From a virus (taxonomy: Duplodnaviria > Caudoviricetes): DNA of 60,641 nucleotides. Position numbers and translations under genes: made by a program. Shown here piece by piece: positions 1 through 60,641 of this stretch (position 1 is the stretch's first letter; the number at the start of each line of letters is the position of its first letter). Location: positions 1 through 60,641 of the IMG/VR virus record IMGVR_UViG_3300034737_000014; one strand, given 5' to 3'. The notes under the pieces were generated by a model that was not told the origin of the DNA, made no database searches, and saw nothing but the letters and a program-made list of their open reading frames with translations.

Positions 1-55
1 TTTGGTTTTGCCCGTGTTGATCTCGGTAACAATTTTGCATTTGATGGTTTTGTTG
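1..55. repeat. 55-bp direct repeat identical to the window end (circular assembly overlap)
   Basis: 1-55 (tttggttttgcccg...ggttttgttg) is identical to 60587-60641, and an ORF reads through the join. Confidence 0.95.
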
Positions 56-228
56 ATGTGTCTGCCCCTAACCAAGGGCAAGCGCAGTGGTTAGCGCAGC
101 CTTCTATTATGTACAGCTTTAATAAATCCTTTAGTGCCGGTATTGAACAACAGCTATACCTTAATAAGGGGTATGTTAAAGGACTCGATGAGTCAGTCCC
201 CCAGTTGAAACTTGTTTATGGATGGTAA
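1..228 (+). CDS. 3' part of Tsx/OmpK-like outer-membrane beta-barrel protein (gene starts at 60170)
   Basis: Frame 1 is open from 1 to TAA at 226-228: FGFARVDLGNNFAFDGFVD...AQPSIMY...GIEQQLYLNKGYVKGLDESVPQLKLVYGW. Amphipathic strands and a terminal aromatic residue. Confidence 0.75.
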   Translation, partial: FGFARVDLGNNFAFDGFVDVSAPNQGQAQWLAQPSIMYSFNKSFSAGIEQQLYLNKGYVKGLDESVPQLKLVYGW

Positions 229-232
229 AATT

Positions 233-511
233 ATGAAATTTGATGCACGTTATTTATGGTTGCTTGTAGTACCAGCAGTAGTATTGGGGTTAATTAACCT
301 AGATTTACTGATCGAGTATGTAAGTGTTTTATCCATCGTTCTCCTGATTGCCGGATTTACCCACATCATTAGGAAAATCTTAATGCCTTATGTTGATATG
401 GGAAAACTAATTGACGATGGTGCGGACAAGGGTTTGGTTTTCTTGGGCATGTCGATCATGATCAGTGCGTTTGCACTTGTCCTAGCGGCGCTGATTCATG
501 TCGGTCATTGA
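233..511 (+). CDS. putative holin (3 predicted TM segments)
   Basis: Small, very hydrophobic ORF directly upstream of the endolysin. ATG at 233 preferred to the track's TTG at 212, which overlaps the upstream gene. Confidence 0.65.
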   Translation: MKFDARYLWLLVVPAVVLGLINLDLLIEYVSVLSIVLLIAGFTHIIRKILMPYVDMGKLIDDGADKGLVFLGMSIMISAFALVLAALIHVGH

Positions 512-1085
512 TTTAGCAATGCCTCTTCTACCTGTTCTTAAAGAGGAACAGGTAGCATATTGGTGCGATCATCCCAAACCTACGCTACTTGCGGGCCAAG
601 TAGAGCAGGAAAGCGGATGGAAGGTTAATGCAACGCTAAAGACAGACAGGGAGTTCGGCGCTGGTTTAGCACAGTTCACTAAGACAGCTACCTTCGATGC
701 TATTGAGGAGCTTAAAGCAAAACATCCGACTGTGTTTGGCGATTGGTCTTTCACTAACCCATATACTCCCCGTTATCAGCTACGGGGTTTAGTCGTTTAC
801 ATGCACGACTTGAGTAGCGAGATTAGGGGCGCGGCAACGCCAGATGATAATTACAGAATGACACTATCGGCTTACAATGGTGGAATAGGCGGCTTGCGTA
901 AAGAGCGATTAAAGTGTAGCATTATGCCTAACTGTAACCCAAATGTGTGGTACGGCAATGTTGAATTAAGTAGTGTTAAAAGCCATAAGGCGTTTAAGGG
1001 GTACGGCCAAAGTCCTTATGATATTAACCGTGGCTACATTAAACTGGTCTATGAACGTGCCAAGAAATATGAAGGGCTATATTGA
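498..1085 (+). CDS. endolysin, lytic transglycosylase (SLT-like)
   Basis: Motifs QVEQES, GLAQF and AYNGG; lies between holin and spanins. Confidence 0.85.
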   Translation: MSVIDLAMPLLPVLKEEQVAYWCDHPKPTLLAGQVEQESGWKVNATLKTDREFGAGLAQFTKTATFDAIEELKAKHPTVFGDWSFTNPYTPRYQLRGLVVYMHDLSSEIRGAATPDDNYRMTLSAYNGGIGGLRKERLKCSIMPNCNPNVWYGNVELSSVKSHKAFKGYGQSPYDINRGYIKLVYERAKKYEGLY

Positions 1086-1561
1086 TGTGGTTTTACCCTA
1101 CAGTAGCAGCAGCGGTTATCGGTTTTTTCACCGGTTGGTATATAAACGGGTTAAGGCTCAATGCCGAGATTAATTCGTTGCACGCTACTTGGAATGAAGC
1201 TTACGCCAACCAAGCAAAGATTACTATGGACAAAGAGCACGAGCTTAATCAGCTAAACGTACAGGTGGAGGCGAATAATGCTAACCAAGCAAAAGCAATT
1301 AATGATGCGCATGATAAAAATATCAAGCTTGCTACTGACATTAAGCGGTTGCAGCAATCAGCCAGTGTCAGTTACGGCACCGTGCCCAGCGCCAGTGCTA
1401 CCTGCAAGTGTGCAAGCACAACCGCCAGGAGCGAATTTTCAGACGAGAGTATCAGCCTTCTTGTCAACCTGGCGAGAGAAGCTGACGACGCGGCAAGATA
1501 CGCCAACACCTGCCACGAGTGGGCAATAGGCGTTGCCAAAGAATTAGATAAACAACGGTAG
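1082..1561 (+). CDS. i-spanin (Rz-like)
   Basis: N-terminal TM helix followed by coiled coil; follows the endolysin. Confidence 0.8.
   Translation: MMWFYPTVAAAVIGFFTGWYINGLRLNAEINSLHATWNEAYANQAKITMDKEHELNQLNVQVEANNANQAKAINDAHDKNIKLATDIKRLQQSASVSYGTVPSASATCKCASTTARSEFSDESISLLVNLAREADDAARYANTCHEWAIGVAKELDKQR
1311..1529 (+). CDS. o-spanin lipoprotein (Rz1-like), embedded in the i-spanin in another frame
   Basis: MIKISSLLLTLSGC lipobox followed by Pro-rich PCPAPVLP; fully nested in 1082-1561. Confidence 0.75.
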   Translation: MIKISSLLLTLSGCSNQPVSVTAPCPAPVLPASVQAQPPGANFQTRVSAFLSTWREKLTTRQDTPTPATSGQ

Positions 1562-1569
1562 AATAGACG

Positions 1570-3186
1570 ATGATTATATCCAGTTTCCTAGGGGAGATGC
1601 CAGGACAAGGTGATTTAGGCAAACCCATAAACGCGGCTGACTTCGCGTCTAACTTATTGCTAGACGAAGGCCTGTTTCCTAAGTCATTCATTGTTACACA
1701 AGTATCGACTATTACCGAAGCGGACCAGTCAGTTGTTCGCATTGACGGCCAGGCCTACACACTACCCGCCGGCTTCGTTGCACGATCTCCGTTGGCTAAT
1801 GACGCAAAGGGGCGCATATACTACACATACGACACTCCTACCGACGGACAGACGGCATATGTTGTCTATTCAAAAGGCACCGACGGCCGCTTGCTCGGCG
1901 CTAACTCTGTCGTGCGTAAATTAGGCGTACCGCTGCCGTCAACGCCAAGTATTACTATTACTATTACTAACACCACGATTGACCCCCCTGTCGGAGAGGT
2001 GCCAGTAGCCACCTACTATGCAATTACGCTAACTAACGAGTGGGGCGAAGAGGGCGCGCTATCTAGCGCGTCACAACAGGCTATACTATACTCCAACACT
2101 ACGGTTGTTATTGACCGCCCTGCTGAGGCTTTAGGCGTTGACATCGCCAAGTGGAATATCTACATGGCTAACAACGGTCAATGGCAGTTCATGCAAGAGG
2201 TAGACAAAGCAACGTCTAGCGTAACACTGGTAGGCGACGCAGCTAAGTACCCAGCGCTCGGCGAAGTATGCCCATCACTTGATTGGTTGCCTCCGCCGAC
2301 AGATATTAAAGGCTTGGTCGCTATGTCTGGCGGTTTTATGGCGGCTTATTCTGGGCGTAACTTAGTATGTAGCGAACCCTATTTGCCACACGCTTGGCCA
2401 TCAGGCTATAGCTACCCAGTGCAGTACGATATTCTAGGTATCGTTCCTGTATCAGGTGGGGCAATCGTTGTTACCAACGGCCGGCAGTATGCCGCTTTAG
2501 GGGCTTCGCCGTCTACGCTACAGTTACAACAACTGGAAATGGACGCCGGTTGTGTTAGCCGCGATTCGATTATTGATATGGGTGAGTATGCAGTCTACGC
2601 ATCAACGGTCGGCCTAATTAAAATGGGCTTACAGGGTGTTGAGCTAATCAGTCAGGCGGCGTTCTCGCGCCATGCGTGGCGATCAGTTAACCCATCAAGT
2701 ATTAAGGCAATGCGGGTTAAGCATTACTACGTGTTCCAGTCAAATAATACACCAGTGTATGTGCTAGACACCAATACAGGCGTGTTTACCCGCACTGACA
2801 AGCTGAACCTAACACAGTTCTATCGCGGTTTTTATGACCCTACGGATGACCTAACCTACGCCATTAAGCATGATACAACGTTAACGCTTAACACAATCGG
2901 TATCGACTTTACGACCGGAAGTGTGTGGGAGTCGAGAGCACTGGCAAGCAATGCTGGCATTGCTCCGTCTTGGGGGCAGATTGACGCCGATACCTACCCA
3001 GTAACGCTTGAGTTCGGCACATCAGAAACAGGAACAGCATTTACCTACCAGGCATACACAGTCAACGATAGAAAACCGTTTAGATTGGCGTCGGGCCGAG
3101 AGGCGTTTGCCAAATTTCGCCTGTCTAACTTCCACGGCCAGATTTACCGTGTCGTGTTAACCAACGATAGGAGTGAATTTGTATGA
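1570..3186 (+). CDS. putative tail nozzle / DNA-stabilisation protein (tail tubular B / P22 gp10-like)
   Basis: 538 aa, beta-rich, with SEPYLPHAWP and GCVSRDSI segments typical of podovirus nozzle-like proteins. Confidence 0.55.
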   Translation: MIISSFLGEMPGQGDLGKPINAADFASNLLLDEGLFPKSFIVTQVSTITEADQSVVRIDGQAYTLPAGFVARSPLANDAKGRIYYTYDTPTDGQTAYVVYSKGTDGRLLGANSVVRKLGVPLPSTPSITITITNTTIDPPVGEVPVATYYAITLTNEWGEEGALSSASQQAILYSNTTVVIDRPAEALGVDIAKWNIYMANNGQWQFMQEVDKATSSVTLVGDAAKYPALGEVCPSLDWLPPPTDIKGLVAMSGGFMAAYSGRNLVCSEPYLPHAWPSGYSYPVQYDILGIVPVSGGAIVVTNGRQYAALGASPSTLQLQQLEMDAGCVSRDSIIDMGEYAVYASTVGLIKMGLQGVELISQAAFSRHAWRSVNPSSIKAMRVKHYYVFQSNNTPVYVLDTNTGVFTRTDKLNLTQFYRGFYDPTDDLTYAIKHDTTLTLNTIGIDFTTGSVWESRALASNAGIAPSWGQIDADTYPVTLEFGTSETGTAFTYQAYTVNDRKPFRLASGREAFAKFRLSNFHGQIYRVVLTNDRSEFV

Positions 3187-46278: not shown

Positions 46279-49200
46279 ATGGCGACTCCTCCTAATCAGG
46301 CACAATCACCGTTAAACTTCTTGGGCCTGCCTGAGACTAGACCAGGAACCTCTTTGATTACGGAGAACCCCGGTTTCTTGGATGGAGCACAAGCCGTAGG
46401 TTACTCCCTTGCAGCCGGCGTGGCTAATGCCAGAGCCTTACTGGCCGATTCTGACCAAGAGTTAGAGCTACATCGCCGCGCCGCCGAAGAGATGACACGC
46501 CGTGCTTCGTCCCTTACTAACGAGGCTAGCCTAGTTAACCTATGGGGGAACGCGGGAGCGCAGATTCTAGGAACTGCAGCCACTGGCGGACTAGCCGGGC
46601 TTGGGGTGAAAGCCGTAGGAGGAACCGCTTTAGCCCGTTTAGCGGCGGCAACTGCTGCCGGCACAACGCTAAATGCGCCGGCCGCCTACAATGAGAGTGT
46701 CAATACTCAACTCGACCAAGGCGTCCCCTATAAGCAGGCCTTATCGGATTCTATCGCTCCGGCTATGACTAACGCCGGGCTAGATTCAGTAACTCCGATG
46801 ATGATGATTGCTAAAGGACTAGCGGGCAAAGGAGTTGATGCTGCGGCTCATGCTACTGGTGACAGCGTATTAAAACGTTTCGGTAAAACTACCGGGGCAG
46901 AAGCCTTAACTGGCGCAGCGCAAACAGGCGTAAATATCGCAGGCGTCGACGATGCTTATCAGAAGTATGACGTGTTCAGCGAGAAAGGTATCGGTGATAT
47001 GGCCAATGCTGGTATGATGGAGGCCATCGCCGGCTCGCCTTACACCGCGGCTGAATCGGTACTACATAACACCCCGGCGCAACCCCCAGTAGCTCCAGCC
47101 GCCTCGCCACAACCAGTTGAGGTAACGTCGCCATCGGCTGAGGCAACTGTAGACCCGAGCACCGAAACGGTAATCGAAGATAGTAACGGACAAGTACCTC
47201 CAGGTATGGATACCACTATTACCCCGGCGCAAGCGCGCGCGGCACGTGCTGCTGAGTTACTAGCTAACGCCAGCAAAGGCGGTGAGTTCCTGAATCTGAA
47301 GCAATTAAATGACTTCACCAAACAGCTTATTGACGATTTAGGCGGAGACCAAAACGACAGGAAAGCCCTAGCCTCTCATTTAATGTCTAAGGCTAAACAA
47401 GATTTCAACGGTAAATCAGCATACAACGCTACGACTATCGCCCAAGAACTAGACTCTCGTCTGCCGATCTTTGCCGCAGGTATTGAACAGAAGAACGCAG
47501 CGCGCGCTAATGAAGCCAATAATTCGACGCTTGAACAGGTAGGTGTAGTGACTCCGCCTACCGGCGTTACCGAGCAGGATGTTGCAAAAGCGTTTGGCAA
47601 GAAAACCTATGAGGTCCCGGCCGCAGACTTACCGAATGGAGACTTGTTTGGGTACGATAACCCGAAACAACTTAATGCTAACTTATCAGAAGTAGAGCAG
47701 AGATTAGCCCAACCGTTTGCTAACACGGTACCGCACCAAGAGGTTTCAGGTAATCAACCTATTGCTGAACCAGCTATCCCAGGCAACACACCACAGATAG
47801 AGATGTTTGGCCTGGGCGGTCAGGTAAACCCACAGGCTATGAACATGCCGGCGTTGCCTGCTCCTCCTGTTGGTTTGAGCGAAGACCACCTTAACCAAGC
47901 CGCTAGACAGTTAGCGGCTGAACAAGGTAATCACCCAGTACAGGCAGATACCCAGCCTACTGCTCCAGTGCTTGTGCGTAACCAGACGCTAGGCATTGGG
48001 GGCGACCAAGCAATTCCTGTTTTACCCACCGGCGAAGCTATGGCGGACGGTTTCGGCAAAGACCCGTTGAAAGCACTGGTCGAGTTAGAACCGACATCTT
48101 GGAAACAAGACACCACGATCACGGGCCTCCTGCCGAAGAACAAAAGCGCATTACTACGTAAAGCAGTGGAAAGCGCTGATACTATTGAACAGGCTATCGC
48201 TAATTTAGGCAGCTACAACAAAGGCGTAACACGCCAGAAAGCAAGTGATTTAATCCTAGCCTTGAACAAGCTGTTGCCTGCGCAGGAGACAGCGCCAACC
48301 GTAGAACCTACCCACGCGGCACCAGCCGTACAGCTACCCGCCGTACAGTCTATGGTTGAGCAGTCTCCAGCTAAAGCCGCCCCCGTGGCCAAACCAGGAG
48401 CTACCGCTGTCGCTGCCCGCCCTTCGCCAGCGCTACCAGCAGAAACTGTTCTAACTGATACCGACGTACCAGCTTCTAAGATAAAACTATCATCGCGCAA
48501 GACTGGGTTCAAGACACCAGTGGCTGCGGTTGCTGCCGCCAAGAAAGCTAAAGTGGCCAATCCTTTGCCAGTTAAGCTAGCTGACGGTACCTACGGTTAT
48601 ACGTCAAAAGAACTGCTAGATGCTAAAGAAGACCCGCTAGATACCCCAGTACCTGCGGAGTTGGTAACTAACAAAATTACCGCGAAGACCTCTAAGAAAG
48701 GCATTACTGCCCGCGAGTGGTTGATTAACTTATTCGCACGTAAAGACCCGCTTGACCCGCAGATAAGCGAGAAAGCCTTAGCGTATGTGGCTTCGTTGAA
48801 AGATGAACCTTTGGTTAGTTCTGACCCAGAACTTTTAACTACTCTATTGAAAGACCCCGACATCGCGGATTTAGCTGCTACACTAGACGACCCAGAAATG
48901 TCTTTGTCAGAACTAGCGTTCGCTCATTTACAGGACTTAGAGACCATAGCTCAAGCAAAAGCGGATATAGCAGCGGAATCAAACGTTGTAGAGGAAGCGG
49001 CTAAGACGCCACCTAAACCCGTTCAGAAAAAAGTAGCAAAGACGGATAACAAGCTAGCCGACCAGGTGTATGACAAGTGGACCCCGCACGAAGACGTTGT
49101 TAAAGCCGCTAACGCAATCGCCAGTGGTACTCTAAAGAAACGCGTCTTAGCCGCCCTTAAACAAACCATGCCCGGGGAAGCTGTTACATCTTTAGAACGC

Positions 49201-52200
49201 TTGAAAGACGAATACGAAGATAATGAAAACTTTGTAGAAGATATTGAGGCAGTTCAGCGCGAGCTAAAGAGAACTCAGCGGGAGCGCGGTGTAGCCCGTG
49301 CCGCTGCGTCTGGTAGCGCTGTAACGGAGATAAATGACCCGGCAGAACTAGCCCGAATTGCCGCTGAATTAGAAGCTAACACAAAAACAAAAGCTTCACT
49401 GTCTACTAGCTCTGACAAGCTAGCCCAGATCGAAAAAGAAAGTTATCGCAACAAAAAGCTATCTAACACGGCTGTGCAGGAAGAAGCGCCACTAGACACC
49501 AACGTCGACAAGGATGGTTTCTCAGCTACTACCGACGATACTCACGGCGATGCCCTACTTCGTCGAGAGGTGCGCACACTAGCCGAACGTATACTTTCTG
49601 AGTTCACGACCCCGCCTAACATTGAGGTAATTCTTGACCTTTCAGAAGCACCTGAATCAATCAAGAAGGCAGCAGAAAAAGCAGGTTTCGATGGCACGAC
49701 TGCCCAGGTTAAAGGGTTCTTTCATAAAGGCACCATGTATATTGTTTCGTCAGCGCACACTGACAAGGATTCCGTAGAGCGCGCCGTTTATCACGAAGCC
49801 TTCCATCTAGGACTGCGCCAGGCTGTATCTCCTAGAAAGCTAACGGCGATACTGAACGCGGCCATTGACCAGATGGGCGGCAGAGACGGCATCATTAAGT
49901 TCGCCAAACAGATGGGCGTCTATGACCGCCTAGTCCCTTATATCCAGAAGTACGACGACGATGTGGCTAACGGAACCCGCAGCCGCCAATCGGCAGATCG
50001 TATGTTGTTGGAGGAGACATTGGCACCTTTAGCTGAGACTCGCAGTGTGCCTAAATTATCAGGCTTATCAAAATTCTTAGGCTCTATAGCCCGTGCATTA
50101 GAATCGGTAGGCGCTATTAAGCCAGCGGCTTGGGTGCGCAAATGGTCTCCTAAATTAGTAGCTCAGGCTTTCTTAGATTTGGCCAACAAGGGGCTTAATA
50201 GTGGAACACCCGCAGACGTTCAGGATACAGATGCCGGTTTTATGGCTGTCGCTAGCCCTTCGCAGCTCTCTGCCGCCGCAAAACGTACTTACAACGATAT
50301 TAAGCAAAGAGCCGAAGATACTCAGGCATCGTTGAATAAACTACCGTACCGAACCGCTACAAGACGTCTTGCTACAGCACTTTCAGCTATGGGCGGTAAA
50401 GGAGCGGTATTTACGGCACGTCAGTTGGTATCATCCACCAAAGGTATGCTAACCAGTTTAGCGGATTCGTTTGAGTTATCAGGCAAACCGGAGCTGGCAG
50501 GCAAACTACGCAACATGATTCACCGTTTGGAAGTAATCACTGCTAAACAGGATACTATCGCAAATGAGTTTTTAGGCAAAGCGCTCCGTTCTATGGAACA
50601 CTTATCAGAGGCCAGCCAGAAGAAAACATGGGAAGTATTCCAACTTGAACTAACGCCAGAAAAAGCCGCTGAACGCCTCAACGCAGAAGAGATGCGAGCT
50701 TATCGAGGCCTACGTGATACTTTCAATAAGTTCTTCGATAGAGTAATGCGACCAGCCTATGAACGCGAGGCTAACATTCTCTTAGCTGACGGAAAGGACA
50801 CATCTTCGGTTATGGAGCTGGCAGTTGGTATGGGTGATTATGTTATCCGCCACGGCCGGTTTGAGCGCGTAGCGCAGGGGCAGGGCACCCACCGCTTGAC
50901 TAACTACCGTGCCAACTACTCGCCACGTATATATGACCGTGAGAAGATTCGTGCGAATCAAGAACAGTTCGTTAAAGACATGATGGCTAGAACAGGCATG
51001 AGTGAAGAGCAAGCTACCAACTTGTTAGACGACATCATGGACGATACTACCAACGTATCTCAAATTGGGCAGGCCCCAGTGATCGGTATGGGTAAAGCCG
51101 GTTCGCAGAAAGCACGTAAGATCAATCTGCCTAACTCCGTTTTTGATGGTTACTTGTCTAAAGACCTTGGCACTGTATTGCCGGTTTACCTGAACCGCAC
51201 TGTCCAACACTCGTTGTTCACGCAAGAGTTTGGGCGTATGCAGACCGCAGCCGATGGTAGCCTACGCATGGCCCCAGGAAACGAGTGGGCTGAGATTCAT
51301 AATGCCATTGATAGTGAAGATGACCGCGTCGTTTTCAGACGTATCATGAATACTATTACTAGCCGTACTGGTCTAACAGATTCAGCGCTTGCCCGTACTG
51401 CGTCGTCAGGTTTACGCGCCTTTGGGTCGATTATGATGATGTCACTTATCCTACTTAAATCAATCGGCGACGTAGCGTGGATCGCCGCTGCCGGCAAAAA
51501 CGGCATCGAGCGACAAGCAGCTCGTCAGGCGTTAAAAGATGTCGTTAACTCTATGATGAAGGGCGATAAAGCGCGCTCTGTAGCGGCTAATCGTATCTTC
51601 TACCAACACGCCGGATTAGTTACTAACTCGATCATGGACCGTACTTTAGCGGACTTGACCGATGTGGCTAGTACCGAAGGCTGGGAAGGTAAGTTCAACC
51701 GTGCTACGACTAAGTTCTACCAACGTACCGGTATCCACCACCTGACTACTATTCTGCGTAACGTAGCCCTCGACGCCGGACAGATCGCCGTCGATCATTC
51801 TATTGCTATCTTAGCTGATGCCAACACTACGGAAAAGGAGAAAGCGGATGCTAAGGATACTCTGGCGCGTTTCGGAGTTGATAGTGATAAGTGGACATTG
51901 TGGAAAGATGCAGGTAAACCGACGGTAGAACAGGCGCTGGAGTCAGGCAATCCTGAACTAGCCGCTGCCGCTGACAGCGCTATCACTACTCTTACTAGAT
52001 TTAGAAACAGCCATGTTGCGCACCCTACTCAGTTAGACAAGACTTTGTGGGCAGACAACGCTATCGGTAAATTGTTCTGGCAGTTTCATAGCTATTTCTA
52101 CGCATTGCAAAACCATGTTATGACTGGGTTCTTCGATAACATCATGGACCATAAAGGCAGCGAGGCCTTCAAGCAGATGGCTATTTATATCCCAGTGGCG

Positions 52201-52617
52201 CTAGTAGTTGGGGGAGCTGGTTTATATGCAGCCCATGCGTTACAGTATGCGGCCCCCGCTGCTTTCTGGGGCAACCCTCTACCTCCACAGTCTATGACTG
52301 GAATGGACTTTGGAGACGCGGCCCTTGAAGCGCTGAAATACACGGCCTTGTCTGGTTTCTCAGCCGAATCATGGAGTACAGCAGCAACGATGCCGGGCGG
52401 GTTCATGGACATCACTAACCTTGCTCCATCTGTTGGTTTATTTACCAAAACATTCGGCGTTGATAGCCTATCATCTGCGCCAGAGGACCTACTGAAGCAC
52501 GCCAAGAGTATGGCCGACAACCTATTGTACGCGGCAGCCGTCTATAAAATTTGGGGGCCAGGCAGTGACAAGCTTATGGAGGCTAGACAACGCGAGATAG
52601 AGAGGTTGACAAAGTGA
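46279..52617 (+). CDS. large ejection / polyvalent-type internal virion protein with a zincin-like motif
   Basis: 2112 aa, Ala-rich helical; KGFF...YHEAFHLG...EE. Confidence 0.7.
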   Translation: MATPPNQAQSPLNFLGLPETRPGTSLITENPGFLDGAQAVGYSLAAGVANARALLADSDQELELHRRAAEEMTRRASSLTNEASLVNLWGNAGAQILGTAATGGLAGLGVKAVGGTALARLAAATAAGTTLNAPAAYNESVNTQLDQGVPYKQALSDSIAPAMTNAGLDSVTPMMMIAKGLAGKGVDAAAHATGDSVLKRFGKTTGAEALTGAAQTGVNIAGVDDAYQKYDVFSEKGIGDMANAGMMEAIAGSPYTAAESVLHNTPAQPPVAPAASPQPVEVTSPSAEATVDPSTETVIEDSNGQVPPGMDTTITPAQARAARAAELLANASKGGEFLNLKQLNDFTKQLIDDLGGDQNDRKALASHLMSKAKQDFNGKSAYNATTIAQELDSRLPIFAAGIEQKNAARANEANNSTLEQVGVVTPPTGVTEQDVAKAFGKKTYEVPAADLPNGDLFGYDNPKQLNANLSEVEQRLAQPFANTVPHQEVSGNQPIAEPAIPGNTPQIEMFGLGGQVNPQAMNMPALPAPPVGLSEDHLNQAARQLAAEQGNHPVQADTQPTAPVLVRNQTLGIGGDQAIPVLPTGEAMADGFGKDPLKALVELEPTSWKQDTTITGLLPKNKSALLRKAVESADTIEQAIANLGSYNKGVTRQKASDLILALNKLLPAQETAPTVEPTHAAPAVQLPAVQSMVEQSPAKAAPVAKPGATAVAARPSPALPAETVLTDTDVPASKIKLSSRKTGFKTPVAAVAAAKKAKVANPLPVKLADGTYGYTSKELLDAKEDPLDTPVPAELVTNKITAKTSKKGITAREWLINLFARKDPLDPQISEKALAYVASLKDEPLVSSDPELLTTLLKDPDIADLAATLDDPEMSLSELAFAHLQDLETIAQAKADIAAESNVVEEAAKTPPKPVQKKVAKTDNKLADQVYDKWTPHEDVVKAANAIASGTLKKRVLAALKQTMPGEAVTSLERLKDEYEDNENFVEDIEAVQRELKRTQRERGVARAAASGSAVTEINDPAELARIAAELEANTKTKASLSTSSDKLAQIEKESYRNKKLSNTAVQEEAPLDTNVDKDGFSATTDDTHGDALLRREVRTLAERILSEFTTPPNIEVILDLSEAPESIKKAAEKAGFDGTTAQVKGFFHKGTMYIVSSAHTDKDSVERAVYHEAFHLGLRQAVSPRKLTAILNAAIDQMGGRDGIIKFAKQMGVYDRLVPYIQKYDDDVANGTRSRQSADRMLLEETLAPLAETRSVPKLSGLSKFLGSIARALESVGAIKPAAWVRKWSPKLVAQAFLDLANKGLNSGTPADVQDTDAGFMAVASPSQLSAAAKRTYNDIKQRAEDTQASLNKLPYRTATRRLATALSAMGGKGAVFTARQLVSSTKGMLTSLADSFELSGKPELAGKLRNMIHRLEVITAKQDTIANEFLGKALRSMEHLSEASQKKTWEVFQLELTPEKAAERLNAEEMRAYRGLRDTFNKFFDRVMRPAYEREANILLADGKDTSSVMELAVGMGDYVIRHGRFERVAQGQGTHRLTNYRANYSPRIYDREKIRANQEQFVKDMMARTGMSEEQATNLLDDIMDDTTNVSQIGQAPVIGMGKAGSQKARKINLPNSVFDGYLSKDLGTVLPVYLNRTVQHSLFTQEFGRMQTAADGSLRMAPGNEWAEIHNAIDSEDDRVVFRRIMNTITSRTGLTDSALARTASSGLRAFGSIMMMSLILLKSIGDVAWIAAAGKNGIERQAARQALKDVVNSMMKGDKARSVAANRIFYQHAGLVTNSIMDRTLADLTDVASTEGWEGKFNRATTKFYQRTGIHHLTTILRNVALDAGQIAVDHSIAILADANTTEKEKADAKDTLARFGVDSDKWTLWKDAGKPTVEQALESGNPELAAAADSAITTLTRFRNSHVAHPTQLDKTLWADNAIGKLFWQFHSYFYALQNHVMTGFFDNIMDHKGSEAFKQMAIYIPVALVVGGAGLYAAHALQYAAPAAFWGNPLPPQSMTGMDFGDAALEALKYTALSGFSAESWSTAATMPGGFMDITNLAPSVGLFTKTFGVDSLSSAPEDLLKHAKSMADNLLYAAAVYKIWGPGSDKLMEARQREIERLTK

Positions 52618-56015: not shown

Positions 56016-57077
56016 ATGTCAGTAAAGGTAGACGGAACTTCCGGTATTAGTGCTATTCAATCAGTAGCATTAACAGATAAATTAGGTAGAAGAAACTACC
56101 TAATTAACGGTAATTTTGATAAATGGGATTATGCTACAAGCCAGACAGCGTCTGGATTTGGTTCTGATAATAGATGGAATAATCTAAATAATGGTTCAAC
56201 CAAGACGGCATCTCAACAAACCTGCGGCGATACAGAACGCGTGTTATTTAACGCTATGTATTTTAGTAGAACAAAAGTAACTACTTCGTCTGGTTCGAGT
56301 AACTACGTATCTAAAATACAACCTATAGAGAATGTTAATCTGTTAGCGGGTAAAACTGTTACATTATCCTTTTGGGCTAAAGCGGATGATAACAGAAATA
56401 TTGCTGTAGAGTTTCTTCAGAATTTTGGAACTGGTGGAAGCCCAAGTACATCAGTTACTGGTATTGGTTCTCAACTTGTTGCTTTAACTACGTCTTGGAA
56501 AAGGTATGTAGTTACTGTAACTATTCCATCTATTGTAGGAAAAACTCTTGGGTCAGATGGAGTACAGACTACATGGACAGGCTTAAACCTTTGGTTTGAC
56601 GCCGGCAGCAACTATGCAGCTCGTGCTGCTAACTTAGGGCAGCAATCAGGTACATTCGATATTGCTCAAGTTAAGATTGAAGATGGTTCAGTTGCTACTA
56701 ATGGCTGGCATCCTTATGACGGGGAGTTTGGCGGAGAAGTTGATGCCTGTGCTAGATACTATGAAAAAACTGACAGTTTTGGGGTCATCGTGGCTGAAGT
56801 AACTGACGTAGATAATCGCGGGGGAGGAGCGTGGCATTTTAGAAGTGTCAAGAGAGTAGTACCCACAATCATTTTTAATGGGGCGCTATCTAACTACAAT
56901 ATTCATAACTACAGTACAGACACAGACGTCGCTGTAACTGGCATGAGCTGTGTTGCTACAAATTTAAGCAGTACAAGAATTTTAGCTTCATCCTCCTCCA
57001 ATATCTCAAGAGGTCATGGCACTGATATTTCTTCAACTAACGCCAATGCGTTTATTGCTGCTTCAGCAGAGTTCTAA
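56016..57077 (+). CDS. receptor-binding fibre with carbohydrate-binding-like domain
   Basis: RNYLINGNF..W, VTLSFWAK, VKIEDGSVAT and CARYYEK. Confidence 0.7.
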   Translation: MSVKVDGTSGISAIQSVALTDKLGRRNYLINGNFDKWDYATSQTASGFGSDNRWNNLNNGSTKTASQQTCGDTERVLFNAMYFSRTKVTTSSGSSNYVSKIQPIENVNLLAGKTVTLSFWAKADDNRNIAVEFLQNFGTGGSPSTSVTGIGSQLVALTTSWKRYVVTVTIPSIVGKTLGSDGVQTTWTGLNLWFDAGSNYAARAANLGQQSGTFDIAQVKIEDGSVATNGWHPYDGEFGGEVDACARYYEKTDSFGVIVAEVTDVDNRGGGAWHFRSVKRVVPTIIFNGALSNYNIHNYSTDTDVAVTGMSCVATNLSSTRILASSSSNISRGHGTDISSTNANAFIAASAEF

Positions 57078-57091
57078 GAGGAATTAAAACA

Positions 57092-57442
57092 ATGGTCTAT
57101 ACGATTGAAATTACCTCTGTTAAAATCCAATCTAACGGTTGGTTACTAAACGGAAATACACATGTCCCTGATGCCCCAGGCAATAAAGAACGAGAAGCTA
57201 TTCTAAAATGGATTGCAGAAGGTAATACACCTGAACCACAATTCACAGATGAAGAACTAGCTGCTAACAAAAAAGCGAAAGCTATATCAGATGCTAGGAC
57301 TGTATTAGCTTCAACTGGGTGGATTATGGAAAAGTATACTGATTTGGTTGTAATACAAAAACTTATGGCAGAAGAAGAGTTTAATACCAAATATGCAGCC
57401 GTATTAAAGCAAAGAAATGATGCAAGAGAGGCGCTTAAATGA
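57092..57442 (+). CDS. fibre assembly chaperone-like protein
   Basis: VPDAPGN...WIAEGNTPEP and LASTGW...R..AR. Confidence 0.6.
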   Translation: MVYTIEITSVKIQSNGWLLNGNTHVPDAPGNKEREAILKWIAEGNTPEPQFTDEELAANKKAKAISDARTVLASTGWIMEKYTDLVVIQKLMAEEEFNTKYAAVLKQRNDAREALK

Positions 57443-57897
57443 GTTCATTAGCCTGTAAGAATGTAAAGATACAAGATACTAATGGAAATGTAGCAAGTAC
57501 GATAAGTTGGGACGGCAATAATGTTACATTTGATAAGCCTGTATTAGTACCAACTGCGCCTGTTGGCACGAAAAACACCCAAGTAGCTACAACCGCTTTT
57601 GCTATGGGGGCTGGCGTTGGTAGCAACCAAACTTGGCAGGATGTAAAATCAAATAGAGCACTGGGCACTACATATACAAATTCTACTGGAAAACCTATTA
57701 TTGTCTCCGTTAGGTATGAGATTACTGGTATTGCAGTCTCTATGATAGTAGATGGCGTAACTGTGGCGTCATTCTATAATTCAACTAACTCACAGTTAGG
57801 GGTCACTCAACAAGTAGTAGTGCCAAATGGTTCTACTTATACGGTTACTGCTTCGTCTGGCTCTCCAACGCTAACAATATGGACTGAACTTAGATAA
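57439..57897 (+). CDS. short tail fibre module
   Basis: PTAPVG...TQVATTAF, GSNQTWQDV, YTNSTGKPI, VPNGSTY and WTELR. Confidence 0.7.
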   Translation: MSSLACKNVKIQDTNGNVASTISWDGNNVTFDKPVLVPTAPVGTKNTQVATTAFAMGAGVGSNQTWQDVKSNRALGTTYTNSTGKPIIVSVRYEITGIAVSMIVDGVTVASFYNSTNSQLGVTQQVVVPNGSTYTVTASSGSPTLTIWTELR

Positions 57898-58214
57898 TGG
57901 AGAACACAATGAAATACTATAAAGATGTAAACAATAATGTATACGCATACGAGTTAGATGGTTCACAGGATTATCTAATAGGTGATAAAGTCGCTATGAC
58001 GTCTGATGAAGTTGAAGCACACCTTAACCCATCTATTACACCAGAGCAACTCACTCAAAACCGTATCAACGAACTTAAATCACTTTTATCTAGTACGGAC
58101 TTCAAAGTATTACCAGATTATCAACAACGCAGCGGTAAAACTGATGCGGAAATGGCACAGATACTTTCAGATCGTAAAGCATGGTATGATGAATTGAAGG
58201 GGCTAACTAAATGA
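57897..58214 (+). CDS. fibre assembly chaperone-like protein
   Basis: MKYYKD.NNNVYAYE.DGSQD and LSSTDFKVLPDY. Confidence 0.6.
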   Translation: MENTMKYYKDVNNNVYAYELDGSQDYLIGDKVAMTSDEVEAHLNPSITPEQLTQNRINELKSLLSSTDFKVLPDYQQRSGKTDAEMAQILSDRKAWYDELKGLTK

Positions 58215-58750
58215 GCGGTAGTATTGGAAGCAACTCTAATGGAGACTTAGAGTTATATAGTGGCTCTACAAAAGTATTAACAGCACATGCTACAACAGGA
58301 GTTACCGATTTTGTAAAAACACCAACAGCACCTACACCTACCGCTGGCGCGAATGATACCCAGGTGGCTACTACTGCAATGGTACATGCGGCAATTACAA
58401 ATGATTTGCATGTTACGGGGGCTGCGCCTATGTACGCTTGCAGAGCATGGGTGAATTTTGATGGTACACAATCAACTCCATCTATTAGAGGAAGTGGTAA
58501 TATTAGTAGTGTTACAAAAAACGGTACGGGTAACTATACTATGAGTTTTACAACAGCTATGCCTGATGTAAAATATGTATCGGTTTTTGGTGGTAGAAAC
58601 AATGGCGACGGAAACGGTTGTTGGCTGGCAGAATACGGTGATCCTTCTACACAAGCAGGGAAAACAACTACTTCTCTAACAGTTGCGAATTATAAAGACG
58701 ATGGTACTTCTCTTGATATGTCTACTTTTATGACTACAATCTTTAGATAA
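58211..58750 (+). CDS. short tail fibre module
   Basis: PTAPTP..G.NDTQVATTA and CRAWVNFDG...SGNISSV...GTGNY...F.TAMPD..Y. Confidence 0.7.
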   Translation: MSGSIGSNSNGDLELYSGSTKVLTAHATTGVTDFVKTPTAPTPTAGANDTQVATTAMVHAAITNDLHVTGAAPMYACRAWVNFDGTQSTPSIRGSGNISSVTKNGTGNYTMSFTTAMPDVKYVSVFGGRNNGDGNGCWLAEYGDPSTQAGKTTTSLTVANYKDDGTSLDMSTFMTTIFR

Positions 58751-58764
58751 AAAGGAAAAAACAA

Positions 58765-59037
58765 ATGGTAGTAATTTACGAAAAACCAGATAAGTCAGTT
58801 TCAGTATTAACCCCAACACAAGAAGCATTAAGCTTTGCTACGATTCAGCAAATCGCCGAGAAAGATGTACCTTATAATCTACCCTACTGGATTGTCGATG
58901 AAACAACTTTACCAGATGCACCAATAGAGTATTGGCAGTTAGATGGAACACAAGGCACACCAGACGGTTTCGGCGGCGAATCTAACGAGTTTGACGCTGA
59001 GTTATTAGAAAAGTTTAAGCAAGGAGTTATCGGATGA
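58765..59037 (+). CDS. fibre-associated small protein
   Basis: IAEKDVP...YWIVD...LP and PDGFG. Confidence 0.6.
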   Translation: MVVIYEKPDKSVSVLTPTQEALSFATIQQIAEKDVPYNLPYWIVDETTLPDAPIEYWQLDGTQGTPDGFGGESNEFDAELLEKFKQGVIG

Positions 59038-59318
59038 TCACGGTTAATAAAGATAAAGTTTCACAACAGTTCGCTCAACAAGCTAAATCCGCTGTTTATG
59101 ATTTACTCGACCAAACTGCACAAAACTACGATTATCGTAGTTTCGCTGAAGTAGCGCAGTTTGTAAATAGCAACGTATGGAAGGCGGAAGCGGACGGTTT
59201 ATTGGCTTGGCAAGATGCTGTTTGGCTAAAAGCTTACGAACTACTAAAAGAGCCTATTACAAACATTTTTGATTTTATGGCGCAGTTGCCAAAGTATGTT
59301 CCATCTAGTGGTTCTTAA
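59034..59318 (+). CDS. fibre-associated small protein (DUF4376-like)
   Basis: LDQTAQ.YDY.S and EA..L.AWQDAVW. Confidence 0.55.
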   Translation: MITVNKDKVSQQFAQQAKSAVYDLLDQTAQNYDYRSFAEVAQFVNSNVWKAEADGLLAWQDAVWLKAYELLKEPITNIFDFMAQLPKYVPSSGS

Positions 59319-59393
59319 GATTTAATAGCCTATTATTACTGATAGGAAATTCATGGTTAGTAAGAGAGTTATTTTAGGTGTAGAGGGCACACA

Positions 59394-59678
59394 GTGGCAG
59401 AAGAAACATTTAACAGACGTAGCACTGATGCAAATTATATACAGCTTAGGGGTGAGCTTGAGTTATTAAAGCAGAGCCTAGATAGCCGTATTAATGGGCT
59501 TTCGGAAAAACACGGCGATTTACGTGGGGATGTTGATGCTCTAACTAAAGCAGTCCAAGGACTAACTAATACAGTTAGTAGTGCAGTTAAGTACATCCTA
59601 GGCGGGGCGGCTGTTATCAGTTTCCTAATGTCTGGTTACGGCATTAAAATACTAACGGTCCTGGGAGGTGGCACTTAA
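59394..59678 (+). CDS. coiled-coil protein with C-terminal TM (holin/XhlA-like)
   Basis: NRRSTD motif, coiled coil, then TM helix. Confidence 0.55.
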   Translation: MAEETFNRRSTDANYIQLRGELELLKQSLDSRINGLSEKHGDLRGDVDALTKAVQGLTNTVSSAVKYILGGAAVISFLMSGYGIKILTVLGGGT

Positions 59679-60166
59679 TGTCCCAGATTGATAGACAAAT
59701 TTTCTACTTCCAGTGGTTTAATCGTTTATTTTTAATGATGCTAGCGTTGACTGTAGCTGTTTTAACCTATTGGACCCTTGAGCCTGACCCATTGCAAGTA
59801 TATTATGTAGACGGCGAAATAAACTGGTCTACTTGTGCCCACAGGGAGTATAGCTTTGATCGTTATGTTAGGTCTGAGAAAGACTTAACAATTATCGTAC
59901 AAGAACGGTGGCATGACCTTGATGGCATGATGGATTATAATGGCATAGAAGGCGAATACGTATATGGCGACATTATTACTTATACGCTAGGAGCAGGCTT
60001 TAATAAAGTTATGACGTTTAATAAAAAAGTACCTAAAGATATTCCTGTAGGTAGGTATGAATATAGGCCTTGGGCTACGTATAAAGTTAATCCGATTAAA
60101 ACAATCACTCGCTTACTACCGGTACAAGAAGTTACAGTGGTTTGTAGCGCAAAAAAGGATGAATAG
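59678..60166 (+). CDS. membrane-anchored periplasmic protein
   Basis: Single N-terminal TM, Ig-like beta domain, two Cys. Confidence 0.55.
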   Translation: MSQIDRQIFYFQWFNRLFLMMLALTVAVLTYWTLEPDPLQVYYVDGEINWSTCAHREYSFDRYVRSEKDLTIIVQERWHDLDGMMDYNGIEGEYVYGDIITYTLGAGFNKVMTFNKKVPKDIPVGRYEYRPWATYKVNPIKTITRLLPVQEVTVVCSAKKDE

Positions 60167-60169
60167 AAA

Positions 60170-60641
60170 ATGGAATTTGTTTTAACATTACTAGCAGCCA
60201 CCTCGATATTATGGGGCGCCGTATTCAAAGACGCCGATGCCGCTGACTTCCAGCGCACAACAATATCTTACCTGGCTGGGGACGGCTATGTCACTGGGGA
60301 ACACCAACGAAACATCATCAGCCTCGACACCATCAACGCAGGTAGCGCAGGATTGTTATATGCAAACATCGACCTACAAAGCTTTACTGGACCAAAAGCG
60401 TACAGCGTTAGCCGCATTGTCGGGCATCTTGGTACAGGATTACATCTCGCAGGACAGCTCCAAAATGCACAAGGATACAGCAATACCAATGTTGGTTTGG
60501 GTTACGATTGGTTTACTTCTAATGGCTTTATTGGTGCAGATGTATATTATCGTACAGATAACCTGAGAGGTGATGGTGTTTACGTATTTGGTTTTGCCCG
60601 TGTTGATCTCGGTAACAATTTTGCATTTGATGGTTTTGTTG
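60170..60641 (+). CDS. 5' part of Tsx/OmpK-like outer-membrane protein (214 aa after circularisation)
   Basis: MEFVLTLLAATSILWGAVFKDADA/ADFQRTTISYLAGDGY..., open to the window end and in frame with 1-228. Confidence 0.75.
   Translation, partial: MEFVLTLLAATSILWGAVFKDADAADFQRTTISYLAGDGYVTGEHQRNIISLDTINAGSAGLLYANIDLQSFTGPKAYSVSRIVGHLGTGLHLAGQLQNAQGYSNTNVGLGYDWFTSNGFIGADVYYRTDNLRGDGVYVFGFARVDLGNNFAFDGFV
60587..60641. repeat. 55-bp direct repeat identical to the window start
   Basis: Exact match to 1-55. Confidence 0.95.

Follow-up and report, generated by a model that had tools for sequence, protein, structure and literature searches.

A predicted minimal-loop β-barrel of Tsx/DUF5020 ancestry beside the lysis genes of an uncultured phage

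When the two ends of a viral genome that is recorded as complete overlap inside an open frame, is a gene hidden at the junction, and if so, what does it encode and what would it do for the phage? The question is raised by the virus record IMGVR_UViG_3300034737_000014 (Duplodnaviria; Caudoviricetes), a genome of 60,641 bases (b), which was analysed in its full length and is here called the window. Its source class is that of genomes with direct terminal repeats, 100% complete. A first-pass annotation, made from the letters alone, had proposed that joining the ends creates an open reading frame (ORF) of 214 amino acids (aa), hidden among the late lysis genes and resembling the Tsx/OmpK/DUF5020 outer-membrane channels. 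The joined ORF is a real phage gene coding for a 214-aa precursor. It is conserved and under selection, its product is a predicted 12-stranded barrel with minimal loops and with Tsx/DUF5020 ancestry, and it has the status of an accessory gene beside the lysis genes. Its function for the phage, which we infer, may be that of a passive channel for nucleoside-type solutes.

The last 55 b of the window (60587..60641, without strand) are identical to bases 1-55, this being the longest exact overlap of the two ends, and they lie inside the barrel gene. The repeat is an overlap left by the assembly of a genome that is circular or terminally redundant; many assemblies have 55 as their largest k-mer, and an assembler using k = 55 leaves exactly a 55-b overlap on a circular path. 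The 5′ part of the gene (60170..60641, plus strand) begins at the ATG at 60170, with AAGGA 10 b upstream, and runs without a stop for 157 codons to the end of the window, where the frame is still open. The same frame is open from base 1 until the stop at 226-228, giving a 3′ part (1..228, plus strand) of 75 codons plus stop. The 157-aa and 75-aa pieces overlap by 18 residues, and once one copy of the repeat is removed a script translates them as a single ORF of 214 aa.

Homologs show the same protein uninterrupted. A search with the 157-aa piece against 5.8 billion proteins gives 26 matches at E ≤ 0.001 among 86 candidates, and 23 of these are 214-217 aa long and cover the entire query. Intact copies of the gene are also found in related phages, a check that the first-pass annotation had called for: the ORF has 214 aa on contigs L003, L004, and L007, and 216 aa on L005 and L006. 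The joined protein of the window is identical to the database protein P0001 at 203 of 214 residues and to the L003 copy at 194. At the DNA level, blastn of the joined 3.4-kb region gives one unbroken segment that spans the junction, of 2747 b against L004 and L007 (79-80% identity) and of 1446 b against L003 (81%). The ratio of nonsynonymous to synonymous substitutions (dN/dS) of the gene is 0.058 against L003, 0.055 against L004, and 0.044 against L007, with synonymous sites near saturation in these comparisons (dS 1.0-2.2); such values indicate strong purifying selection. Hence, the scripted join, the uninterrupted homologs, and the purifying selection together bear out the proposed 214-aa ORF. 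Logan contigs of two sequencing runs (X1 and X2) lie mismatch-free on the final 142 b and the final 55 b of the window and extend 327 letters beyond its end, letters that may equal window positions 56-382; because the two runs may be the source sample, they are not independent support. Over 60300-60641, the Logan contigs of vent and mat runs consist of many short variant pieces with many single-base variants, and several strains of this phage appear to co-occur.

The N-terminus of the protein has a predicted hydrophobic helix (residues 2-18, with a low predicted local distance difference test score, pLDDT), followed by A-D-A/A, and aligns with the canonical signal peptides of cellular relatives. 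The presumed signal peptide, as read from the sequence, comprises codons 1-24 (60170-60241, plus strand) and ends in A-D-A. The AlphaFold2 model, made from the L003 copy (pLDDT 81.5, predicted template modelling score 0.71), has 12 strands, which show alternating hydrophobic and polar faces and are joined by between-strand segments of 2-8 residues. The window protein ends in the aromatic motif Y-G-W, and each of the 26 full-length rows of A1, the alignment of the barrel family, likewise has W or F as its last residue. Outer-membrane barrels usually end in an aromatic residue; here, both the even strand number and the aromatic C-terminal residue expected of an outer-membrane β-barrel are found. 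On the model, the product is predicted to be a phage-encoded 12-stranded barrel of the outer-membrane type. Its best structural match is Tsx, and it is 12-stranded like PDB 1tlw, in agreement with the Tsx-like barrel that had been anticipated from the sequence. The top Foldseek matches of the model are KdgM/NanC, whose size and strand number are similar to those of the phage barrel, and one could therefore suppose that the protein is another small 12-stranded channel, for example, of the KdgM/NanC-like acidic-sugar type, and that it shares with Tsx only the fold. The likeness to KdgM/NanC is itself one of fold only, and neither sequences nor profiles link the two. A KdgM-type Pfam match is absent from all 28 rows of A1 at E ≤ 10, so that by sequence they do not belong to that family, whereas every sequence or profile link leads to Channel_Tsx/DUF5020. 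An acidic-sugar channel would therefore come as a great surprise.

The link to Channel_Tsx/DUF5020 appears through profiles. When the A1 profile is compared with 1.84 billion representatives, it matches 79 proteins at E ≤ 0.001. The Pfam scan covered 51 of these, all of at least 203 aa except P0022, with 27 shorter ones left out. The 11 closest matches (203-218 aa) carry no Pfam family. Among the 40 distant ones (206-272 aa), DUF5020 and/or Channel_Tsx is found in 34 at E ≤ 0.01, 20 reach a curated cut-off, and six have neither family. Two further profiles were made, one of the phage-type family (A2, 24 rows) and one of 33 of these 34 DUF5020/Channel_Tsx-positive proteins (A3). The two align by hhalign with a probability of 99.9% and E 2.9e-35 over 192 columns, that is, over the whole mature chain, and E is 1.2e-34 when E. 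coli Tsx heads the target alignment. The A3 profile matches a single PDB sequence, which is Tsx (E 1.8e-4), and also recovers the phage-type gene in a metagenome-assembled genome (MAG; E 1.6e-22). The nearest ESM Atlas clusters of the barrel are likewise DUF5020 and Channel_Tsx (score 0.96, 195-200 shared features). It is thus well supported that the barrel belongs to a branch of the Tsx/DUF5020 superfamily that has diverged and become shorter, lying outside both Pfam families by their own thresholds: the barrel family does not reach the gathering score of Channel_Tsx (PF03502, 27.2 bits), nor the cut-off of DUF5020 (PF16412, 36.7 bits), for which there is no match at E ≤ 10. The resemblance read in the first-pass annotation holds as homology at the level of the superfamily, found by profile-profile comparison; membership in either Pfam family does not. 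We are highly confident of this part of the explanation, namely, that a real phage gene encodes a barrel of the Tsx/DUF5020 superfamily.

The phage barrel is homologous over its whole mature chain to cellular Tsx-like or DUF5020-positive proteins of 226-294 aa, including those from the order of the MAG that contains L007. The sequence motifs that had been singled out in the ORF are all present and are the best-conserved columns between the phage proteins and the cellular Tsx-like ones; the two groups have in common G-x-G-Y, F-x-G-F-x-D, Q-P, G-x-E, and N-K...D-E-x-V-P-Q, as well as the polar, lumen-facing residues D68, E188, N194, Q172, and Q207. The cellular forms differ in being longer, with insertions between strands, and in having canonical basic signal peptides. 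The difference in length (214 aa against 246-294 aa in cellular relatives, with the gaps falling between strands) agrees with the shortened loops that had been suspected. Compared with the E. coli nucleoside-specific channel Tsx (PDB 1tlw/1tly; PF03502), which has a 294-aa precursor, the 214-aa phage barrel is nearly devoid of surface loops and has no direct hidden Markov model match, and the positions related to transport are mostly not conserved in it, on a low-confidence alignment. With about 190 residues and loops of at most 8, as modelled, the barrel would be close to a minimal natural Tsx-type barrel, and it would therefore be useful for studying what the loops contribute to Tsx and as a small scaffold.

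Cellular relatives also provide a genomic context. Of the 99 genomes searched within the order of the MAG, 98 were scored, and the phage profile matches 13 of these. In 12 of the 13 the match is a cellular gene, an open frame of 194-294 aa that is matched mainly in the C-terminal third. The loci of nine of these 12 were fetched, and seven reach the Channel_Tsx cut-off. Four of the nine genes belong to nucleoside-uptake clusters, with an amidohydrolase on one side and a PnrA-like nucleoside ABC binding protein on the other; another three lie between CvfB and a methyltransferase-like gene, and two are beside RibD_C and an NMT1/PAS protein. The phage form is found in a lysis module, unlike the cellular Tsx-like genes. 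The phage itself encodes nrdA, nrdB, and thymidylate synthase, the nucleotide genes that the first-pass annotation had put forward, along with a DNA polymerase, a primase, and a helicase.

Because of the ancestry of the barrel, the nucleoside context of some of its cellular relatives, and the nucleotide genes of the phage, we rank first a nucleoside-type channel. The N-terminal Sec-type signal peptide would be cut after A-D-A, at residue 24, and the host β-barrel assembly (BAM) machinery would insert the mature chain of about 190 residues into the outer membrane of the infected cell. There, the chain would fold as a monomer into a 12-stranded barrel nearly free of surface loops and act as a narrow pore through which nucleosides or similar small solutes pass passively. 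The flux across the outer membrane toward the periplasmic nucleoside uptake of the host would be raised and would feed phage DNA synthesis, the same process that nrdAB and thymidylate synthase would serve, and the small exposed surface would offer little for other phages or colicins to bind. As a whole, with this mechanism included, the explanation is tentative, and it is possible, at somewhat less than an even chance, that the substrate is a nucleoside-type solute whose uptake benefits the phage.

A number of observations weigh against this explanation, some of them bearing on the identity of the barrel and others on its use as a nucleoside channel. Pfam gives no match for either window fragment, nor for the 28 rows of A1, at E ≤ 10, and the barrel has no direct PHROGs or NCBIfam match. 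The best result of a profile search of PDB sequences with the barrel family has an E of 0.38 and concerns unrelated proteins. Searched in six frames with Channel_Tsx (PF03502), the L003 and L008 records give no match at E ≤ 10, the E. coli controls being positive, and the phage profile has no significant match with E. coli Tsx alone (probability 0.6%, E 0.1). The fold was modelled on a copy that differs from the window's own protein (194 of 214 residues are identical), and the structural margin of Tsx over NanC/KdgM is only about 1.5-2 Z units. The n-region of the signal peptide is acidic (Glu), with no Lys or Arg. PMC6499177 names five positions of E. coli Tsx at which mutation is reported to impair transport (F27, G28, S217, G239, and G240). 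In a low-confidence alignment, only G28 is paired with a conserved residue of the phage barrel (G43), and G239 and G240 fall in an E. coli–specific insertion missing from it; F27 pairs with T42, in a remote hhalign register that is unreliable per residue. Conservation across both groups does not differ between lumen-facing and lipid-facing positions (0.76 versus 0.68, p 0.70). Five of the nine cellular loci lack a nucleoside context. Finally, the neighbours of the gene are late structural and lysis genes, a late position for a gene that feeds replication.

This position calls for a closer look at the neighbouring genes. In the window, two small genes precede the barrel: p94 (59394..59678, plus strand), a conserved partner upstream of p162 with a hydrophobic C-terminal segment that reads as transmembrane, and p162 (59678..60166, plus strand), which lies directly 5′ of the barrel and whose product combines a transmembrane helix at the N-terminus with a periplasmic β-sandwich that contains two invariant Cys. 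The barrel is directly followed by a holin gene (233..511, plus strand; phrog_8226, E 1.4e-5), an endolysin gene (498..1085, plus strand; phrog_669, E 5e-21, with a weak SLT match), and a gene for an Rz-like inner-membrane spanin (1082..1561, plus strand; from the PHROGs scan), in which is embedded an ORF for an Rz1-like outer-membrane spanin (1278-1529). The gene thus sits in the late lysis cassette, as the first-pass annotation had it, directly upstream of holin, endolysin, and Rz/Rz1. The order p94-p162-barrel-holin-endolysin(-Rz/Rz1) is kept in the window and in L003-L008, among which L005 and L006 are apparently the same phage and L008 has a different phage background, its barrel (P0028) sharing 85 of 214 residues, about 40%, with that of the window. 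L028 has another order: a 183-aa ORF, in sequence reminiscent of an M15 peptidase, is followed by a p94-like gene, p162, the barrel, and a further membrane protein. A promoter and terminator scan of 57000-60641 gives 18 sites against about 10 expected, none of them clearly placed.

Is the barrel, then, itself a lysis protein? It could aid the spanins by weakening or permeabilising the outer membrane when infection ends, and its place inside the lysis cassette in seven contigs (the window and L003-L008) would suit such a role. A complete Rz/Rz1 pair is, however, already present, and the homology of the barrel is to solute channels, not to membrane-disrupting proteins. In addition, a p162 query finds eight loci, six with the barrel and two without it (L024 and L026). 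L024 has p94-p162-holin-endolysin-Rz/Rz1, with 9 b between p162 and holin (L024:2378-2388) and no barrel, and L026 has only a p94-like gene and p162. Because L024, a close relative, has the same cassette without it, the barrel is an accessory gene and not a core or essential lysis component; one would expect a core lysis protein wherever the lysis cassette is present, and this is not the case. Direct help in breaking the outer membrane is in our judgement very improbable. L003 and L024 provide a natural comparison of the same cassette with and without the barrel.

The constant association of the barrel with p94 and p162 allows a role in lysis timing or superinfection sensing, by a logic analogous to T4 lysis inhibition: the barrel might admit an extracellular signal or contact the periplasmic domain of p162 and thereby tune holin firing. 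It directly follows p162 and p94-like genes in all eight barrel-bearing contigs (the window, L003-L008, and L028), and in L028 the ORFs of p162 and the barrel overlap (p162 ends at 3128 and the barrel starts at 3125). There, the trio is kept despite a different, upstream endolysin ORF and a different downstream membrane protein. The topology of p162, with its membrane helix and its cysteine-bearing periplasmic domain, would also fit, and among named ESM Atlas clusters the one nearest to it is that of the LydB holin antagonist (0.86), which is a lead only. On the other hand, p94 and p162 occur without the barrel in two of 10 contigs (L024 and L026) and so do not need it; no family match links p162 to any antiholin; and the adjacency may mark merely a permissive insertion site. 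The 41 homologs of p162 belong to no family, and its model (pLDDT 88.4), a long N-terminal helix and a β-sandwich, retrieves only generic β-sandwiches in a fold search. A predicted complex of the periplasmic domain of p162 with the mature barrel scores 0.00 in two runs without controls, which speaks neither for nor against binding. A role in lysis timing is ranked second, after the nucleoside channel and before a remodelling of the cell surface, and seems to us rather unlikely. p94 and p162 may themselves be lysis regulators. The p94-p162 pair is conserved in several diverged phages, usually upstream of lysis genes, whether or not the barrel is present (elsewhere than in the window, for example, at L024:1600-2378, L026:434-1404, and L028:2203-3128). 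Neither of the two proteins belongs to a known family, and p162 has no match in 50,697 phage records.

A more elaborate version would make of the barrel, p162, and p94 a phage-built sensor that spans the envelope, with the channel admitting a signal from lysed or superinfected neighbours (e.g., nucleosides or nucleic-acid fragments) and p162 and p94 relaying it to the holin. We hold this to be decidedly improbable. If true, it would be a lysis-timing system with its own outer-membrane port, and we know of no described lysis-inhibition system that has one.

The near absence of loops suggests yet another role. Lambdoid phages carry outer-membrane proteins (Lc/NmpC, Lom, and Bor) that, like the barrel, are encoded by accessory genes near late or lysis genes; the prophage porins among them (Lc/NmpC), whose genes also adjoin lysis genes, limit superinfection or the loss of progeny on debris. 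By analogy, the barrel might be a loop-less substitute for a Tsx-like receptor channel of the host, limiting superinfection or progeny loss on cell debris. Its between-strand segments expose little of the protein, and its cellular relatives are 30-80 residues longer, the extra residues lying between strands. The lambdoid counterparts come from temperate phages, which express them as prophages, and they are 16-stranded trimeric porins, 8-stranded Ail/Lom proteins, or a lipoprotein. In this genome, no tyrosine integrase is found, which makes a setting of lysogenic conversion unlikely. Moreover, an added barrel alone neither removes nor masks the receptor of the host, and no repressor of host porins was identified. 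Tsx and its loops do serve as phage receptors, according to PMC6499177. All in all, surface remodelling is quite improbable.

How common are such genes among phages? Neither tblastn nor megablast finds a match for the barrel in 50,697 GenBank phage records. In the same records, Tsx-like ORFs occur only in two 133-kb contigs named 'Acinetobacter phage MD-2021a' and in Pseudomonas phage VAC3. The VAC3 ORF occupies bases 484-1113 of PQ466445.1, at the extreme left end of the record; PMC11704353 mentions its Tsx annotation in passing and places it next to a LysR-type ORF. The ORF may belong to flanking host DNA and not to the phage. A scan of viral contigs with P0027 finds nothing. In the BFVD viral protein sets, outer-membrane barrels of various kinds are encoded by uncultured tailed phages, among them a DUF481 protein (E 8.8e-6, TMq 0.60) and an outer-membrane protein of Aeromonas phage phiAS5 (TMq 0.62); none of them is named Tsx. 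A literature search, judged mainly from titles and abstracts, turned up no account of a Tsx-like barrel encoded in the lysis module of a phage.

The lysis cassette is flanked on both sides by genes for terminase, portal, major head, tail-fibre, and internal virion proteins, and the genome has no tRNA gene that could be found. Because the best match of its terminase among cultured phages is only 40% identical, the lineage is uncultured. Its DNA is matched in hydrothermal-vent and microbial-mat metagenomes, and there is no RNA dataset among the matching sequencing runs. Among 185,579 species genomes, the sole match of the A1 profile is L007, a 7.4-kb contig in a MAG titled Thiotrichales bacterium, and this contig is itself a phage-type lysis-cassette fragment. 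A homolog of p162 (P0121) is named as coming from an Ignisphaera MAG. The hint on the host given by these two is weak because both are probably binned viral contigs. Other features of these phages may be mentioned. In the window, a 2112-aa ORF (46279-52617) lies among the structural genes and is unmatched in PHROGs at E ≤ 1e-5. The portal-like ORF of L008 (L008:8653-11769) has 1038 aa and its homolog in L028 (L028:4885-6909) has 674 aa, the extra middle part of the former looking, by its sequence, like an intein-type insertion. Between the lysis module and the portal gene, both contigs have an ORF of 176-188 aa (L008:8112-8642 and L028:4312-4878) that looks ferritin-like.

As the barrel gene illustrates, ORF callers miss genes that are cut in two by the terminal overlap of 'complete' viral contigs. 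Databases list outer-membrane barrels encoded by phages, but to our knowledge a role is established for hardly any of them. The present one offers a clean example, with a complete genome, a confident fold, an ancestry in the nucleoside-channel superfamily, purifying selection, and natural cassettes with and without the gene (L003 versus L024). If it works with p162 and p94, the barrel would be an outer-membrane component added to lysis control. If it proves to be a nucleoside channel, the phage would have in it an auxiliary gene for uptake at the outer membrane of vent bacteria.
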